Assembly: GCA_035717985.1 (NCBI GenBank) | Contig: DASTHW010000005.1 | Span: 28,989 to 92,988, forward strand | Origin: Candidatus Saccharimonadales bacterium | GTDB lineage: Bacteria > Patescibacteriota > Saccharimonadia > Saccharimonadales > UBA10212 | Length of the DNA stretch: 64,000 nt | Reading direction: 5' to 3' | Shown here: piece after piece, positions 14,482 to 21,424 of the stretch | How positions within the stretch are numbered: the first letter of the stretch is position 1 | How the letters are laid out: every line of letters starts with the position of its first letter | Position numbers and translations under genes: made by a program | Notes under the pieces: generated by a model | What the model was told of the DNA's origin: nothing | Databases searched by the model: none | The model's input: only the letters and a program-made list of their open reading frames with translations

Positions 14482-14510
14482 TTGACAGCGGAGCGCTAAA
14501 AAAGTAAACT
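14482..14510 (+). promoter_or_regulatory. sigma-70-type promoter of the heat-shock operon
   Basis: TTGACA (14482-14487), 17-nt spacer, TAAACT (14505-14510). It overlaps the left arm of CIRCE. Confidence 0.5.
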
Positions 14511-14535
14511 AGCACTCAGAGTATTAGAGTGCTAA
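14509..14535 (+). promoter_or_regulatory. CIRCE operator (HrcA binding site)
   Basis: CTAGCACTC-agagtatta-GAGTGCTAA matches the consensus TTAGCACTC-N9-GAGTGCTAA at 17 of 18 arm positions. It lies 10 nt upstream of the hrcA ATG. Confidence 0.85.
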
Positions 14536-14544
14536 TAAGGTGAT

Positions 14545-15255
14545 ATGACAGATCGTCAGCAGGAAATTTTAGGCGCTATTATCGAGCAATATGCTGAGGT
14601 GGCTAGCCCAGTCGGTTCTAGCCTGCTAGCCAAACTATTTAATGTCTCCAGCGCCACAATCCGGGCCGAAATGGCCGAGCTGGAGCGGGCCGGCTACATC
14701 AGCCAGCCGCACACCAGTGCCGGCCGGGTACCGACCGACAAAGGCTACCGTTTTTACGTCAACCAACTGGCCGAAACTGGCGTTGTAAGTAAACTTAGTC
14801 AGCCCCGCGGCGAGCGGGCTCTAACGGCCCGGGTGGCCGGCGGCGGCTTGCCGGAGCAGACTATCCGAAATGCCGTAGATACATTGGTAGAGCTGACGCA
14901 TAATTTGGGGCTAGCCACCATTGGCGACCAGTTATATATGAGCGGTCTGTCAAACCTTTTCGGCCAGCCGGAGTTTGGCCACCCGGGCCAAGTCCAAGAG
15001 GTTGCGAGGCTTTTGGACAATCTGGAACCCTGGCTAGCCGAGGCCGCGCCGAATGAGCCGTTAAGCGTCTTTATAGGCCGCGAAAATCCGATTGGCCGCT
15101 CGGCCGGCGCTTCTTTAATAATCGGCCGTTTTCGGAGCCCGTTTTCAGATAAAAGTTATATTGGCGTGCTGGGCCCTACCCGCCAAAGCTATCGTCAGGT
15201 AATGGGCTTAGTTCAGCGGGCCGGCAAAACTCTGGAGGAGACACTTTATGGGTGA
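14545..15255 (+). CDS. hrcA: heat-inducible transcription repressor HrcA (short form, 236 aa)
   Basis: N-terminal wHTH RQQEILGAIIEQYAEVASPVGSSLLAKLFNVSSATIRAEMAELERAGYISQPHTSAGRVPTDKGYRFYV. C-terminal IGVLGPTRQSYRQVMGLV. Confidence 0.85.
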   Translation: MTDRQQEILGAIIEQYAEVASPVGSSLLAKLFNVSSATIRAEMAELERAGYISQPHTSAGRVPTDKGYRFYVNQLAETGVVSKLSQPRGERALTARVAGGGLPEQTIRNAVDTLVELTHNLGLATIGDQLYMSGLSNLFGQPEFGHPGQVQEVARLLDNLEPWLAEAAPNEPLSVFIGRENPIGRSAGASLIIGRFRSPFSDKSYIGVLGPTRQSYRQVMGLVQRAGKTLEETLYG

Positions 15256-15484
15256 AAGTTATGATCACTTGCCAGAGAATGTAGCCAAGGCTTATCCGGA
15301 TTTTGCTCATATGACTAAGGTTTACACCGAGGAGTTGGAAACAGCTCTTGATGAAATGGGGAGCCCTGCGAATCCGACCGGTGGCAGTGTAATTAATGCC
15401 GTCAAAAGGGCCAGAGAGAGGCTAGACAACGAAAGGTTTGAAGCCCAAGATGGCGGACAACCGGGAGATGCTTTCGATGTCTAA
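15248..15484 (+). CDS. small acidic hypothetical protein (78 aa)
   Basis: ATGGGTGA overlap with the hrcA stop and GGAGGAG upstream. Its end overlaps the grpE start by 8 nt. Contains a YPDF motif. Confidence 0.55.
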   Translation: MGESYDHLPENVAKAYPDFAHMTKVYTEELETALDEMGSPANPTGGSVINAVKRARERLDNERFEAQDGGQPGDAFDV

Positions 15485-15941
15485 AAAAATAGATCCGGCT
15501 GAGCTAGAGCAAAAACTTGCCGAGCTAACCGAGGCGCTACAACGTGAGCGGGCTGACTCTATCAATCTGCGCCGCCGGGTAGAGGAAGATAAAATCCGCC
15601 TAGCCAGTTTTTATAAGGCCAAAGTTATCCGCGAGCTTTTACCGGCGCTGGATAATCTAGAGCGGGCCTTAAAGCACGTCCCCAAAGACCTAACCGAGCA
15701 CGATTACGTCAAGGGCGTGCAAAGTGTGGCTAAGCAGTTTGAGCAAAATCTGGCGGCTCTGGGTGTCGAAAAAATCAGGACCGTCGGCGAAAAGTTTGAC
15801 CCCGATTTGCATGAGGCCATCCACATGGAAGATGGTGAAGGCGACCAAGAGATTGTGTCTGAAGAGCTCCAGCCGGGTTATAAAATCGGTGATGAAGTTA
15901 TCCGCCACGCTGTAGTTAAAGTCAAAATGGAGAAGAAATAA
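15477..15941 (+). CDS. grpE: nucleotide exchange factor GrpE
   Basis: LQRERADSINLRRR...LLPALDNLERAL...FDPDLHEAI. I prefer the ATG at 15477 (GGGAG upstream) over the track start at 15438. Confidence 0.9.
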   Translation: MSKKIDPAELEQKLAELTEALQRERADSINLRRRVEEDKIRLASFYKAKVIRELLPALDNLERALKHVPKDLTEHDYVKGVQSVAKQFEQNLAALGVEKIRTVGEKFDPDLHEAIHMEDGEGDQEIVSEELQPGYKIGDEVIRHAVVKVKMEKK

Positions 15942-16234
15942 TGGGCGAAATTTTTCACGAACAGCGCGAAAGACATGATTATTTAGATGAGCCGGAGATT
16001 TCAGAAGTAGCCCTGCGCTCGACTGTAATTCAGATCCTAGATTCTGGGCGCTCGCCCGAAGATCAATCAGCTCTAATTGATGAGGCCAAGGCAGAGTCTA
16101 TCCGGTTCGGGCTGGATAGCTTTAGGGCAGACAGGATTCACCAAGACGCCCTAACAACTAAGGCCATGCAAAACTTGAACTCGGACCTAATGGCTAGAAT
16201 CCGAGAGATAAAAGAAGACCAGGGGGAGGCATGA
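15941..16234 (+). CDS. small acidic hypothetical protein (97 aa)
   Basis: TAATG 1-nt overlap with the grpE stop. No family recognised. Confidence 0.55.
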   Translation: MGEIFHEQRERHDYLDEPEISEVALRSTVIQILDSGRSPEDQSALIDEAKAESIRFGLDSFRADRIHQDALTTKAMQNLNSDLMARIREIKEDQGEA

Positions 16235-19222: not shown

Positions 19223-19469
19223 ACTAGCAAATCTTGATTTAACAGAGGTATACCCGGACTTTCCGCCGATTGAAGAAAGGCTTAGCCGGGCTTACGCAGA
19301 TCCATATGTTCATGAGCGATTTTTGGAGATTAAGGCCGCCAGCGAAGTTGATAGGCCGGCTCTGCAGGCTCAATTGAATGCCTACTTAGCGGCGGCATAT
19401 GTATTATTCCCTGAAGAGTCGCAGATTATTCACGATTCACTAGAACAAACTAATTCTAATGCTGGCTAG
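19215..19469 (+). CDS. small acidic hypothetical protein (84 aa), YPDF / DPxV motif family
   Basis: The ORF shares a YPDF motif with the 78-aa ORF and a 24-residue block with the ORF at 20065. Confidence 0.55.
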   Translation: MSELANLDLTEVYPDFPPIEERLSRAYADPYVHERFLEIKAASEVDRPALQAQLNAYLAAAYVLFPEESQIIHDSLEQTNSNAG

Positions 19470-19487
19470 AGCTCCTGGAGATAGAAA

Positions 19488-19760
19488 GTGACCAGACCTA
19501 GATTCGAATTAGTTAGCAATGCCGGCAATCAGGCCGAGGTTGAGCGGGCTACCGAAAATATGCGGGCGCTTTTAAGCGGCACTCGCCCTAGCACGGCTCT
19601 AGAAGCCGATTTCGTGAGCCTTTACAGCGAGCTACTGGAGGCCTGCGGCTTTGATGAGCAAAAGGTCACCAGCATTTTAGATGACCTAACAAAAGTCGAA
19701 AGTACACGGCCACACTTGAGCTTGGCAAGTGAGGGCGAAATCGTTCGGGAGCAAATATGA
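19488..19760 (+). CDS. small acidic hypothetical protein (90 aa)
   Basis: GTG start with GGAGA upstream. ATGA overlap with cutA. Confidence 0.5.
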   Translation: MTRPRFELVSNAGNQAEVERATENMRALLSGTRPSTALEADFVSLYSELLEACGFDEQKVTSILDDLTKVESTRPHLSLASEGEIVREQI

Positions 19761-20068
19761 GTTATTGCCGGCTAGAGCTAACCTGCGCGGATAAAGGAGA
19801 GGCCGATAAAATTGCAAATACTTTACTGGTTAAGCATTTAGTAGCTTGCGCTAAACAAATCCCGGTAAAGTCTGATTACCGCTGGCAGGGTAAAATAGAG
19901 CGAGCAAGCGAGAATTTGGTAGTCATGGAAAGTAAATTAGAGCTATTCGATAAGGTTGAGAAGGAAGTAGTTAAGCTACACAGCTACGACACTTTTGTGC
20001 TAACGGCTATACCTTTAGCCAAAATCTCAACCAAAGCTGAAAAATGGCTAGCCAAGGAGCTAAGATGA
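19757..20068 (+). CDS. cutA: divalent-cation tolerance protein CutA-like
   Basis: 103 aa. The pattern LVACAKQIP..SDYRWQGKIE...E..V..ES is typical of CutA1. Confidence 0.7.
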   Translation: MSYCRLELTCADKGEADKIANTLLVKHLVACAKQIPVKSDYRWQGKIERASENLVVMESKLELFDKVEKEVVKLHSYDTFVLTAIPLAKISTKAEKWLAKELR

Positions 20069-20316
20069 AGGAAAGAGACTTCAGCGGTGAATTTGAAGAA
20101 ATCATGCGCGGCCAAGTGCCAACCATGGCCGAGCGGATGAAGCAGGCTCTAGATGACCCTTTGGTCCAATATAACTTTGACTTAATTGGCCAAAGGTATG
20201 ATGTAAATTACTTATATTTTATGAATGTGTTAGGCCAAAGATACGGTATGGATTTTGATGATTGCGAGGAAGTTTATCACCGCTTGGCTTATAGAAGGCA
20301 GACTGCCAATGGCTGA
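20065..20316 (+). CDS. small acidic hypothetical protein (83 aa), paralog-like of 19215..19469
   Basis: I prefer the ATG at 20065 (AAGGAG 5 nt upstream, ATGA overlap with the cutA stop) over the track start at 20044. ATGGCTGA overlap with the dnaJ start. Confidence 0.55.
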
Positions 20317-21424
20317 TAAGCGCGATTATTACGAGGTTTTAGGGGTAGCTAAAAGCGCCAGCCCGGACGAAATTAAAAAGGCCTTTCGCCGCCTGGCTGT
20401 ACAGTATCATCCGGACCGCGGCGGTGATGAAACTAAATTTAAAGAGGTAAATGAAGCCTATGAAGTCTTAAAAGATGAAGCTAAGCGCAAGCGCTACGAC
20501 CAATTTGGCCACGCCGGTGTAGGCTCGTCCGCCGCCAGCGGCGCTGGAGGCTTTGGCGGCTTTTCGGGCTTTTCCGGTGCCGAAAACATTAATTTTGACT
20601 TTGGCGATTTGGGCCTGGGTGACATTTTTGGCAGTTTCTTTGGCGGCGATTTTGGAGGTGGCACCCGGCGGGCTGGCCGGAACCGGGGCAGAGACGTAGA
20701 GACCGCTATTGAAATATCTTTTGAGCAAGCCGTTTTTGGTACCGAGGCCGAGTTAAGTCTCTCCATGGAAGATATCTGCCCGCGCTGTAAGGGTAGTTCG
20801 GTGGAGCCGGGCTACGAGCTAAAAACCTGCGATGAATGTAAAGGTAGTGGCCAAATTACCCGGGTTACTAGAACTATTTTTGGCAATATCCAGCAGGCTA
20901 CTACTTGTCCCAAATGCGGCGGCCGGGGGCAAATACCTGAGAAGCAGTGCACGGAATGTCACGGCCGCGGCACCAAACGCACCAGCCAGCTAGTGAAGCT
21001 AAAAATCCCGGCCGGCATAGACGATGGAGCCACCATCCGCCTGCGTGGCCACGGCGAGGCCGCGCCCGGCGGCAGTAAGGGTGATCTTTACGTCAACGTT
21101 AAAGTTAAACCGCACAAAAAATTCACCCGTGAAGGCGAGCTGATTTTATCAAGCGAGCACGTTAGCATGATTGACGCCGCTCTGGGTACTGAAATTGAAG
21201 TTGATACGGTGGATGGGCCGGTCCGTATGAAGGTGCCAATTGGCACCCAAAGTGGCACCGATTTTAAACTGTCCGGTCACGGTGTACCCAACCTGCGCGG
21301 CACTTCCCGCGGTGCCCACATTGTAACCATCATGGTAGATACTCCGACGAAGTTGAGCTCTAAGCAAAAAGCGCTGATGGAACAGTTCAAAAAAGAATCC
21401 GGCAAATGCGGTTTATTTAGCTAA
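20309..21424 (+). CDS. dnaJ: co-chaperone DnaJ
   Basis: J-domain DYYEVLGV...YHPDR, G/F-rich linker and four CxxCxGxG zinc motifs. Start at MADKRDYY. Confidence 0.95.

Follow-up and report, generated by a model that had tools for sequence, protein, structure and literature searches.

A predicted CIRCE-controlled hrcA-grpE-dnaK-dnaJ operon of a soil Saccharimonadales bacterium interleaved with ten small genes of varied age

The stretch of Candidatus Saccharimonadales DNA analysed here (the window: 64,000 nucleotides of contig DASTHW010000005.1, assembly GCA_035717985.1) carries fourteen consecutive open reading frames (ORFs) on its + strand at 14545-21424. They comprise one Hsp70 set and ten extra small genes of a soil Saccharimonadales bacterium, a member of the candidate phyla radiation. 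The order is hrcA, o78, grpE, o97, o80, o75, dnaK, o141, o51, o84, o90a, cutA, o83 (orf83), dnaJ, as in a preliminary description of this DNA, and every ORF was found in its place. The arrangement hrcA-grpE-dnaK-dnaJ is among the most conserved in bacteria. Pfam matches were obtained for HrcA, GrpE, Hsp70, DnaJ and CutA1, and together with the coordinates they show that the class I order and the single strand are kept, with grpE, dnaK and dnaJ downstream of hrcA.

The hrcA gene (14545-15255) encodes a compact protein of 236 amino acids (aa), which matches PF01628 (9e-17) and PF03444 (9.1e-6). HrcA usually has about 340 aa. Comparison with TIGR00331 gave E 1e-51 and 176.5 bits in two stretches; this falls under the equivalog cut-off of 197.2 because the protein lacks about 100 of the residues that the model covers. 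Wherever the length of HrcA was read it was 234-236 aa, and relatives match query residues 1-236, as befits a compact variant. The grpE gene (15477-15941; PF01025, E 9.7e-40) overlaps o78 by 8 nucleotides (nt). The dnaK gene (16706-18655) starts with GTG and matches PF00012 with E 4.6e-262. The product of dnaJ (20309-21424) contains the J domain (PF00226) and the zinc-finger and C-terminal domains (PF00684, PF01556), and the 3' end of the gene is overlapped by a convergent methyltransferase gene. For grpE, o83 and dnaJ we used the ATG codons at 15477, 20065 and 20309, which fit coupling, conserved N-termini and independent gene calls; that of grpE is also the start called in assembly L081, described below.

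Analysis of the region upstream of hrcA revealed a sigma-70-like promoter, TTGACA(14482)-17 nt-TAAACT(ending at 14510), which with 10/12 is the top match within 13800-22300. Two copies of the controlling inverted repeat of chaperone expression (CIRCE; consensus used, TTAGCACTC-N9-GAGTGCTAA) are located at 14473-14535 on the + strand, where the chance expectation is 0. Operator 1 (14473-14499), TTAGCAGTC-N9-GAGCGCTAA, has 2 mismatches and holds the -35 hexamer inside its 9-nt spacer. Operator 2 (14509-14535), CTAGCACTC-N9-GAGTGCTAA, has 1 mismatch and begins two bases before the end of the -10 hexamer. The preliminary description had a promoter and one CIRCE at 14482-14535; the promoter holds, and the single operator is replaced by two.

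All fourteen genes are tightly packed. From hrcA to dnaJ the thirteen junctions measure, in nt (minus denotes overlap), -8, -8, -1, -4, +3, +1, +2, -17, -8, +18, -4, -4 and -8, that is, overlaps of 1-17 nt or gaps of 1-18 nt, as had been described. Shine-Dalgarno sequences of the GGAG/AGGAG type, read by eye from the junction sequences, are present 6-15 nt upstream of 11/14 starts, in agreement with their reported presence at most starts; those of o141, o84 and dnaJ are weak. A search of the operon for CIRCE found none inside it. Promoter-like sites within it (11 vs 8.0+/-2.7 in shuffled sequence) and terminator-like sites (15 vs 11.5+/-3.6 in shuffles) showed no excess. The locus looks like one HrcA/CIRCE-repressed, translationally coupled unit, and the natural and reasonable reading is that the small ORFs are regulated together with the Hsp70 genes.

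The arrangement is not an assembly artefact, because the Logan assembly L081 (16 kb, from an independent sequencing run) is identical to the window base for base throughout the operon. Public collections also contain, by exact sequence, CutA and the nine small proteins, under tags VFP35_00555 to VFP35_00610 on a 125.7-kb contig, where CutA is named and the other nine are annotated as 'hypothetical protein'.

Codon log-likelihoods per codon, trained on 23 long genes of the window, were used to assess the coding character of these nine ORFs. In the annotated frame they scored 0.15-0.36, and this frame was the top of six each time. Spurious ORFs (wrong frames of real genes) had a mean of -0.08 and a 95th percentile of 0.134; 80-codon chunks of real genes gave 0.235+/-0.087. 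An antisense ORF of 134 aa across o80 and o75 is a shadow ORF. Eight of the proteins are acidic and hydrophilic (isoelectric point, pI, 4.3-5.1), and o51 is basic (pI 9.9) with a hydrophobic stretch. None of the nine had a family match in Pfam, NCBIfam, PHROGs or PADLOC, and the last two, which cover phage accessory and defence functions, gave zero matches at E<=0.01. The preliminary description had likewise called the inserted proteins mostly acidic and had recognised none of the unknown ones. Small genes (<150 aa) are concentrated here: ten in the 6.9 kb of the operon, whereas the other ~57 kb of the window contain only five small ORFs that look coding.

Selection was assessed from the ratio of nonsynonymous to synonymous divergence (dN/dS). 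Four of the ORFs, o78, o97, o80 and o75, are also present in the close relative L082 (82-90% nucleotide identity); their dN/dS was 0.13, 0.10, 0.15 and 0.36, respectively, with 0.07 for grpE. Shifted-frame controls, run for o78 and o97 only, gave 0.7-2.9. For o51 the median over 170 pairs was 0.147. The identical L081 was not usable for this purpose, and dS was saturated for o84 and for the distant homologues of o97 and o75. Purifying selection, which the preliminary description had asked to see, was in this way measured for five of the nine (dN/dS 0.10-0.36), and six of the nine have homologues elsewhere; o141, o90a and o83 had no homologue in the searches run. Overall, the nine small ORFs look like genuine genes.

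To place the extra genes in the family, about 130 related loci were compared. A scan with HrcA, taking one genome per species, supplied 80 Saccharimonadales loci with HrcA 66-84% and DnaK 71-90% identical to those of the window. In these 80 loci only o51 (four loci) and cutA (nine loci) were matched; o78, o97, o80, o75, o141, o84, o90a and o83 had no match there (tblastn E<=1e-3; phmmer E<=5). Most of the window's small ORFs are missing even from close relatives with 86-90% identical DnaK. The same junctions in the 80 loci are not empty. Most contain + strand ORFs of 40-230 aa, from one to several per junction, with -8/-4/-1 overlaps, and the ORF content of hrcA|grpE, grpE|dnaK and dnaK|dnaJ differs by species and is mostly unrelated. 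As many as 175 of the 240 junction ORFs of the 80 genome loci are singletons; when 359 junction ORFs from 118 loci were clustered, 234 clusters were obtained, 186 of them singletons. Every one of the 25 largest junction-ORF families is limited to a single junction.

Some of the cargo in relatives is recognisable, and none of this is related to chaperones: VKOR, an NYN nuclease, a GNAT acetyltransferase, GH114, Big_7/dockerin surface proteins, phage-baseplate-like repeats and an ABC transporter. Among 20 larger ORFs of the clade, 18 had no Pfam match and the other two were Abi_alpha (abortive infection) and NUDIX hydrolase genes, both at the dnaK-o51 junction (L128:2805-3473 and L102:3688-4095). 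The number of inserted ORFs per clade member, in the intervals covered by the contig, ranges from 1 to 10, the window having the maximum of ten.

The ten genes appear to form a series of graded age, from orphans (o141, o83) through genes with few relatives (o84 and o75; o78 and o80 with one each) to the clade-linked o97, o51 and cutA. The orphan o141 (18658-19083; acidic, 141 aa, codon score 0.150) lies between dnaK and o51, and o83 (20065-20316; acidic, 83 aa, codon score 0.256) precedes dnaJ; in 5.8 billion protein clusters each matched only itself. An AlphaFold2 model of o141 from the single sequence, with no alignment, had low confidence (predicted local distance difference test, pLDDT, 41.6) and was not taken to the fold search. 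For o90a (19488-19760; acidic, 90 aa, GTG start, codon score 0.212) no homologue was found in the ~130 related loci, the large protein databases not being searched for this ORF.

The sole homologue of o78 (15248-15484; acidic, 78 aa, codon score 0.226) is in L082, with 61% aa identity, and its dN from that homologue is 0.25, whereas that of grpE is 0.048. We considered whether o78 might be a split-off N-terminus of GrpE and rejected this, because relatives without an inserted ORF have an equally short GrpE (154 aa). The sole homologue of o80 (16231-16473; acidic, 80 aa, codon score 0.364) is likewise in L082 and is 92% identical. Directly 5' of dnaK is o75 (16477-16704; acidic, 75 aa), which has a homologue in L082 and a positional one, 36% identical, directly before dnaK in L111. 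Homologues of o84 (19215-19469; acidic, 84 aa), 48-54% identical, were found in L107, L142 and L143, each immediately 3' of o51. A weak paralogy links o84 to o83 (z 4.1, BLASTP E 0.002), the sole marginal pair among the small ORFs. In two places neighbouring ORFs share a reading frame: o80 and o75 are split by TAA and one codon (16471-16479), a layout also seen in L082, and o84 and o90a are 18 nt apart (19467-19490). Stop-codon readthrough or past fission is possible for both pairs.

Three genes, cutA, o51 and o97, appear durably linked to the operon over a longer evolutionary distance. CutA (19757-20068; 103 aa; PF03091, E 2.3e-23) belongs to CutA1 at 82.3 bits vs a gathering cut-off of 22.4, residues 8-100 aligning with profile positions 5-98 of 99. 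In the family cutA is patchy and confined to the dnaK-dnaJ interval (9 genome loci and 15 metagenome loci), and in the 15 metagenome loci it adjoins o51 or is one ORF away. The microprotein o51 (19067-19222; 51 aa, basic and hydrophobic, consensus NFLRYVvLPAvA..AGVKLGiKYA.D.YV.kD.kFIE) was detected in 52 loci by a metagenome scan with an o51 alignment, and in L001, L002, L003, L014 and L090-L092. Where the contig holds both genes, o51 is always between dnaK and dnaJ (>50 loci).

The family of o97 (15941-16234), a small protein with a predicted four-helix fold, is restricted to the clade. An exhaustive HMMER search of 1.84 billion representatives yielded three true homologues (P0013, P0014, P0016; 48-57% identity), two further matches being discarded as repeat-protein artefacts. 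All three, on Saccharimonadales metagenome contigs, are located between grpE and dnaK, right after grpE or one ORF on. The order in L090 is hrcA, grpE, o97, dnaK, o51, a 94-aa ORF, dnaJ. A metagenome scan with the o97 alignment found no locus, and a hidden Markov model of the o97 family found nothing among the junction ORFs of the 80 genome loci. The AlphaFold2 model of o97, from a four-sequence alignment, consists of four helices (pLDDT 90.4, predicted template modelling score 0.76); against the PDB, Foldseek matched this model to generic helical structures only, none of them significantly (best E 1.4).

Comparison of near neighbours illustrates how junction content changes. Relative to the window, L082 has one extra whole ORF, acidic and of 78 aa (L082:304-540), between the hrcA stop and the o78 start, with the 8-nt stop/start overlap recreated at both ends; this ORF has no homologue in any compared locus. 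The pair L120 and L122 shares 98.2% identity over hrcA to dnaK, and 96.3% over the stretch that begins at the next shared ORF and runs into dnaJ. From the dnaK stop to the start of that next ORF (L120:6686-7110 vs L122:3822-4286) the content is swapped: a 76-aa ORF and o51 in one, o51 and cutA in the other, and the two o51 copies are merely 84% identical. We take this pattern as the signature of gene-precise recombinational replacement within conserved flanks. Between the window and L082, dS is uneven (1.9 for o78, 0.24 for o80, 0.5-0.8 for neighbours; these are short genes), a pattern in keeping with a mosaic history. Searches by blastn and tblastx for sequence from which the young ORFs could derive found none elsewhere in the window or in the 80 loci. 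A repeated junction element or attC-like site was looked for at the operon and not found, nor does an integrase or recombinase adjoin it, the flanks being kinases, a methyltransferase, a glutamine amidotransferase and MATCAP-like genes.

CIRCE positions were also compared across the family. The element is present <=150 nt upstream of hrcA in 75/80 relatives. Of the 58 relatives in which hrcA-grpE-dnaK is complete, 39 have a second, often tandem, CIRCE <=250 nt upstream of dnaK, and in some a third precedes dnaJ. For most of the family the 'operon' is thus a row of two or three neighbouring CIRCE units, with the extra ORFs trailing grpE or dnaK. The group to which the window belongs on the HrcA+DnaK tree has no dnaK-proximal CIRCE. 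In the o51-carrying clade an internal CIRCE was found in 0/33 loci, and where upstream sequence is intact CIRCE precedes hrcA in 16/17 loci, in nine of these 16 as a tandem. Since the dnaK-proximal element is missing in the clade of the window, the whole array would be one unit there, and this single 14-gene unit looks like a derived, fused state.

Taken together, these observations make it probable that the extra genes are genuine coding passengers of varied age, collected at three fast-turnover junctions of a single class-I heat-shock operon. HrcA on the two operators, which bracket the -35 and -10 hexamers, would block the promoter, and proteotoxic stress would give rise to a single polycistronic mRNA along which ribosomes would move from gene to gene through the stop/start overlaps (reinitiation coupling). 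The passengers would have gathered at hrcA|grpE, grpE|dnaK and dnaK|dnaJ, which may be family-wide sites of rapid gain, loss and recombinational replacement; new genes fitted there gene-precisely would, for that reason, inherit both stress-inducible transcription and translational coupling. The junctions would in effect be permissive, recombination-accessible slots, an insertion being tolerated only if the downstream essential genes stay translated. Most of the small ORFs would not be parts of the chaperone machine, because their turnover is too free for that and unrelated enzymes occupy the slots in other species. For a role related to Hsp70 there are two credible candidates, o51 and o97, the other small acidic proteins being, as far as their distribution tells, lineage-specific accessory proteins.

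The preliminary description had instead proposed that all nine may be lineage-specific co-chaperones, clients or regulators. In its strongest form, in which the small proteins are dedicated lineage-specific Hsp70 components (co-chaperones, adaptors, regulators or obligate clients) kept at a fixed ratio to DnaK, GrpE and DnaJ, we consider this unlikely, without dismissing it. The tight translational coupling behind one CIRCE promoter and the purifying selection on the tested ORFs argue for it, as do the dnaK-dnaJ placement of o51 in >50 loci, the invariable position of o97 3' of grpE, and its confident predicted fold. As a general statement it is disfavoured by the absence of eight of the nine from the 80 species-level relatives, by the lack of most of them in close relatives with 86-90% identical DnaK, by the orphan status of o141 and o83 and by the non-chaperone enzymes at the same junctions in other species. 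The swaps between near-identical strains are also against it, as a machine part is not expected to be exchanged so freely. For o51 or o97 taken singly the matter is different, since DafA of Thermus thermophilus sets a precedent, being a small Hsp70 factor specific to one clade (PMC3727329); a partner role for either has a minor but real chance. To about the same limited degree we would credit a combined reading, in which the junctions act as a cradle for captured or born genes, expressed at once by way of translational coupling, and o51 and o97 are stable clade-specific Hsp70 partners. The earlier interpretation as a whole is partly supported: the evidence favours real genes that are probably co-regulated with the Hsp70 genes, and does not favour a chaperone-linked role for the nine in general.

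Three further explanations concern the origin of the inserts. The junctions might be a gene cradle proper, in which inserts into an essential, highly expressed operon are kept open and translated to avoid polarity on dnaK and dnaJ and some turn functional, by de novo birth or extreme divergence in place. The ages graded from orphan to clade-wide, the native codon usage, the lack of a source for the young ORFs in any frame in the window or the 80 loci, the families that never change junction and the hints of local duplication in the o84/o83 pair and in L003 (where 14048-14341 and 14602-14928 are two paralogous ORFs that, with o84/o83, hint at local tandem duplication feeding the junctions) are in keeping with it. 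We nevertheless regard it as rather improbable: a non-coding precursor was found for none of the ORFs, the L120/L122 and L082 differences look like whole-gene replacements or indels and not gradual emergence, and part of the cargo consists of clearly pre-existing families. Mobile-element cargo, such as integron-like cassettes, a prophage or moron remnant, or defence or anti-defence genes, is suggested by the resemblance of small acidic co-directional overlapping ORFs to phage accessory arrays and by the Abi_alpha gene at the equivalent junction of one relative. It is very unlikely, given that no integrase or recombinase adjoins the operon, that PHROGs and PADLOC gave no match, that codon usage and GC content are native and that families are position-specific; moreover, no junction element is repeated, and the overlapping junctions leave no room for attC-like sites. 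Least probable of all is that some ORFs, especially o141, o90a and o83, are chance frames in spacer. These three lack homologues in the searches run (for o90a, in related loci only), hence a selection test, and the o141 model is of low confidence; yet all score above the spurious-ORF 95th percentile with the annotated frame best of six, they tile the strand with overlaps, and o90a and o83 have GGAG-type ribosome-binding sites, that of o141 being weak.

Several points weigh against the interpretation of the extra genes as passengers of one unit. There may be internal transcription starts, and the promoter was scored as sigma-70-like, which may not be the rule in this phylum. 'Passenger' is a negative inference, and divergence as fast as that of o78 beside grpE could hide positional orthology. 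The strict linkage of o51 to dnaK and of o97 to grpE is what is expected of real partners. Comparative support is absent for o141, o90a (as checked in related loci) and o83. Finally, the variability is not peculiar to the chaperone junctions, an idea that we rejected after measuring neighbouring syntenic intervals. Spacing exceeds 500 bp in 40% of loci for grpE->dnaK and 53% for dnaK->dnaJ, but also in 45% for lepA->gmk and 68-81% from dnaJ to the downstream gene, with 0% for tilS->ftsH; the plasticity is therefore regional.

Should passengers be the right description, even an essential operon in a very small genome can be a landing and expression platform for new genes. The gene-age series at fixed positions, from orphan to clade-wide, could be used to study the origin and retention of small proteins. 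The locus also carries a warning that operon membership alone is a poor guide to function in these genomes. Through their strict linkage to dnaK and grpE, o51 and o97 become testable Hsp70 accessory candidates in Saccharibacteria, and, were the partner role true, this ultra-small episymbiotic lineage would have novel types of Hsp70 accessory factor. Binding of o51 or o97 to the Hsp70 system, or a recent birth of the orphans, would add to the interest.

Other features of the region were recorded. Downstream of dnaJ, window positions 22162-27261 encode a class-I glutamine amidotransferase, two MATCAP-like proteins (PF08014, tyrosine carboxypeptidase family) and two RimK/ATP-grasp ligase ORFs; this ligase and carboxypeptidase set recalls peptide-tail addition and removal, and RimK is found near dnaJ in 36 loci. 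Upstream of hrcA, at 13187-14454, there are one weak guanylate-kinase-like and one cytidylate-kinase-like ORF. Tandem guanylate-kinase-like paralogues occur at this position in relatives, three of them in L090 (L090:4335-6473), and gmk->gmk pairs in 18 loci. In a - strand run of ORFs at 50093-58665 several N-termini resemble type IV pilin leaders (GFTIVELLIVI, FSIVELIIAI), and a ComEC/Competence gene lies near the operon in L090. Both features point to possible natural competence, a trait that would go well with turnover by recombination. Four tRNA genes are present, at 30208-30281(-), 38614-38686(-), 39265-39336(-) and 39814-39887(+); besides tRNA, an Rfam scan of the window found no family at gathering score.

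The closest known counterpart is the dnaK operon of Firmicutes such as Bacillus subtilis, with which the window shares hrcA as the first gene, CIRCE at a sigma-70-type promoter, the same core order and non-chaperone riders. The B. subtilis operon, hrcA-grpE-dnaK-dnaJ-orf35-orf28-orf50, is termed 'heptacistronic' (Homuth et al. 1997, as cited in PMC2952846), and in it the extra genes lie after dnaJ and have their own constitutive promoter. In contrast, the window has its ten extra genes spread among all four core genes and joined by stop/start overlaps, its HrcA is compact (236 aa), and its promoter is bracketed by two operators. The gene for DafA also lies in a dnaK operon, that of Thermus. 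Like DafA, o51 (51 aa) and o97 (97 aa) are small lineage-restricted proteins encoded in the dnaK cluster and stably linked to it. DafA is, however, a single conserved gene, known as the DnaK-DnaJ assembly factor of T. thermophilus, and its binding has been shown in the DnaK3-DnaJ3-DafA3 complex (PMC3727329), whereas the window's ORFs mostly change from species to species, and o51 and o97 are candidates for a partner role.

Gene-transfer hotspots show rapid turnover in few intervals flanked by conserved core genes (Oliveira et al. 2017, PMC5635113), and replacement via conserved flanks, as in L120/L122, resembles them. Hotspots normally lie between transcription units; the junctions of the window are inside a tightly coupled essential operon, and what they carry is for the most part tiny orphans of native codon usage, not genes recognisable as transferred. 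With integron cassette arrays the window shares promoterless small ORFs in one orientation behind one promoter and a strain-variable content, but it has no integrase, attI or attC and its junctions overlap, so it is not a member of that class. We found no published description of such an arrangement in Saccharibacteria or Patescibacteria. The window operon is a novel form of the known HrcA/CIRCE operon, with two new small-protein families, o51 and o97.

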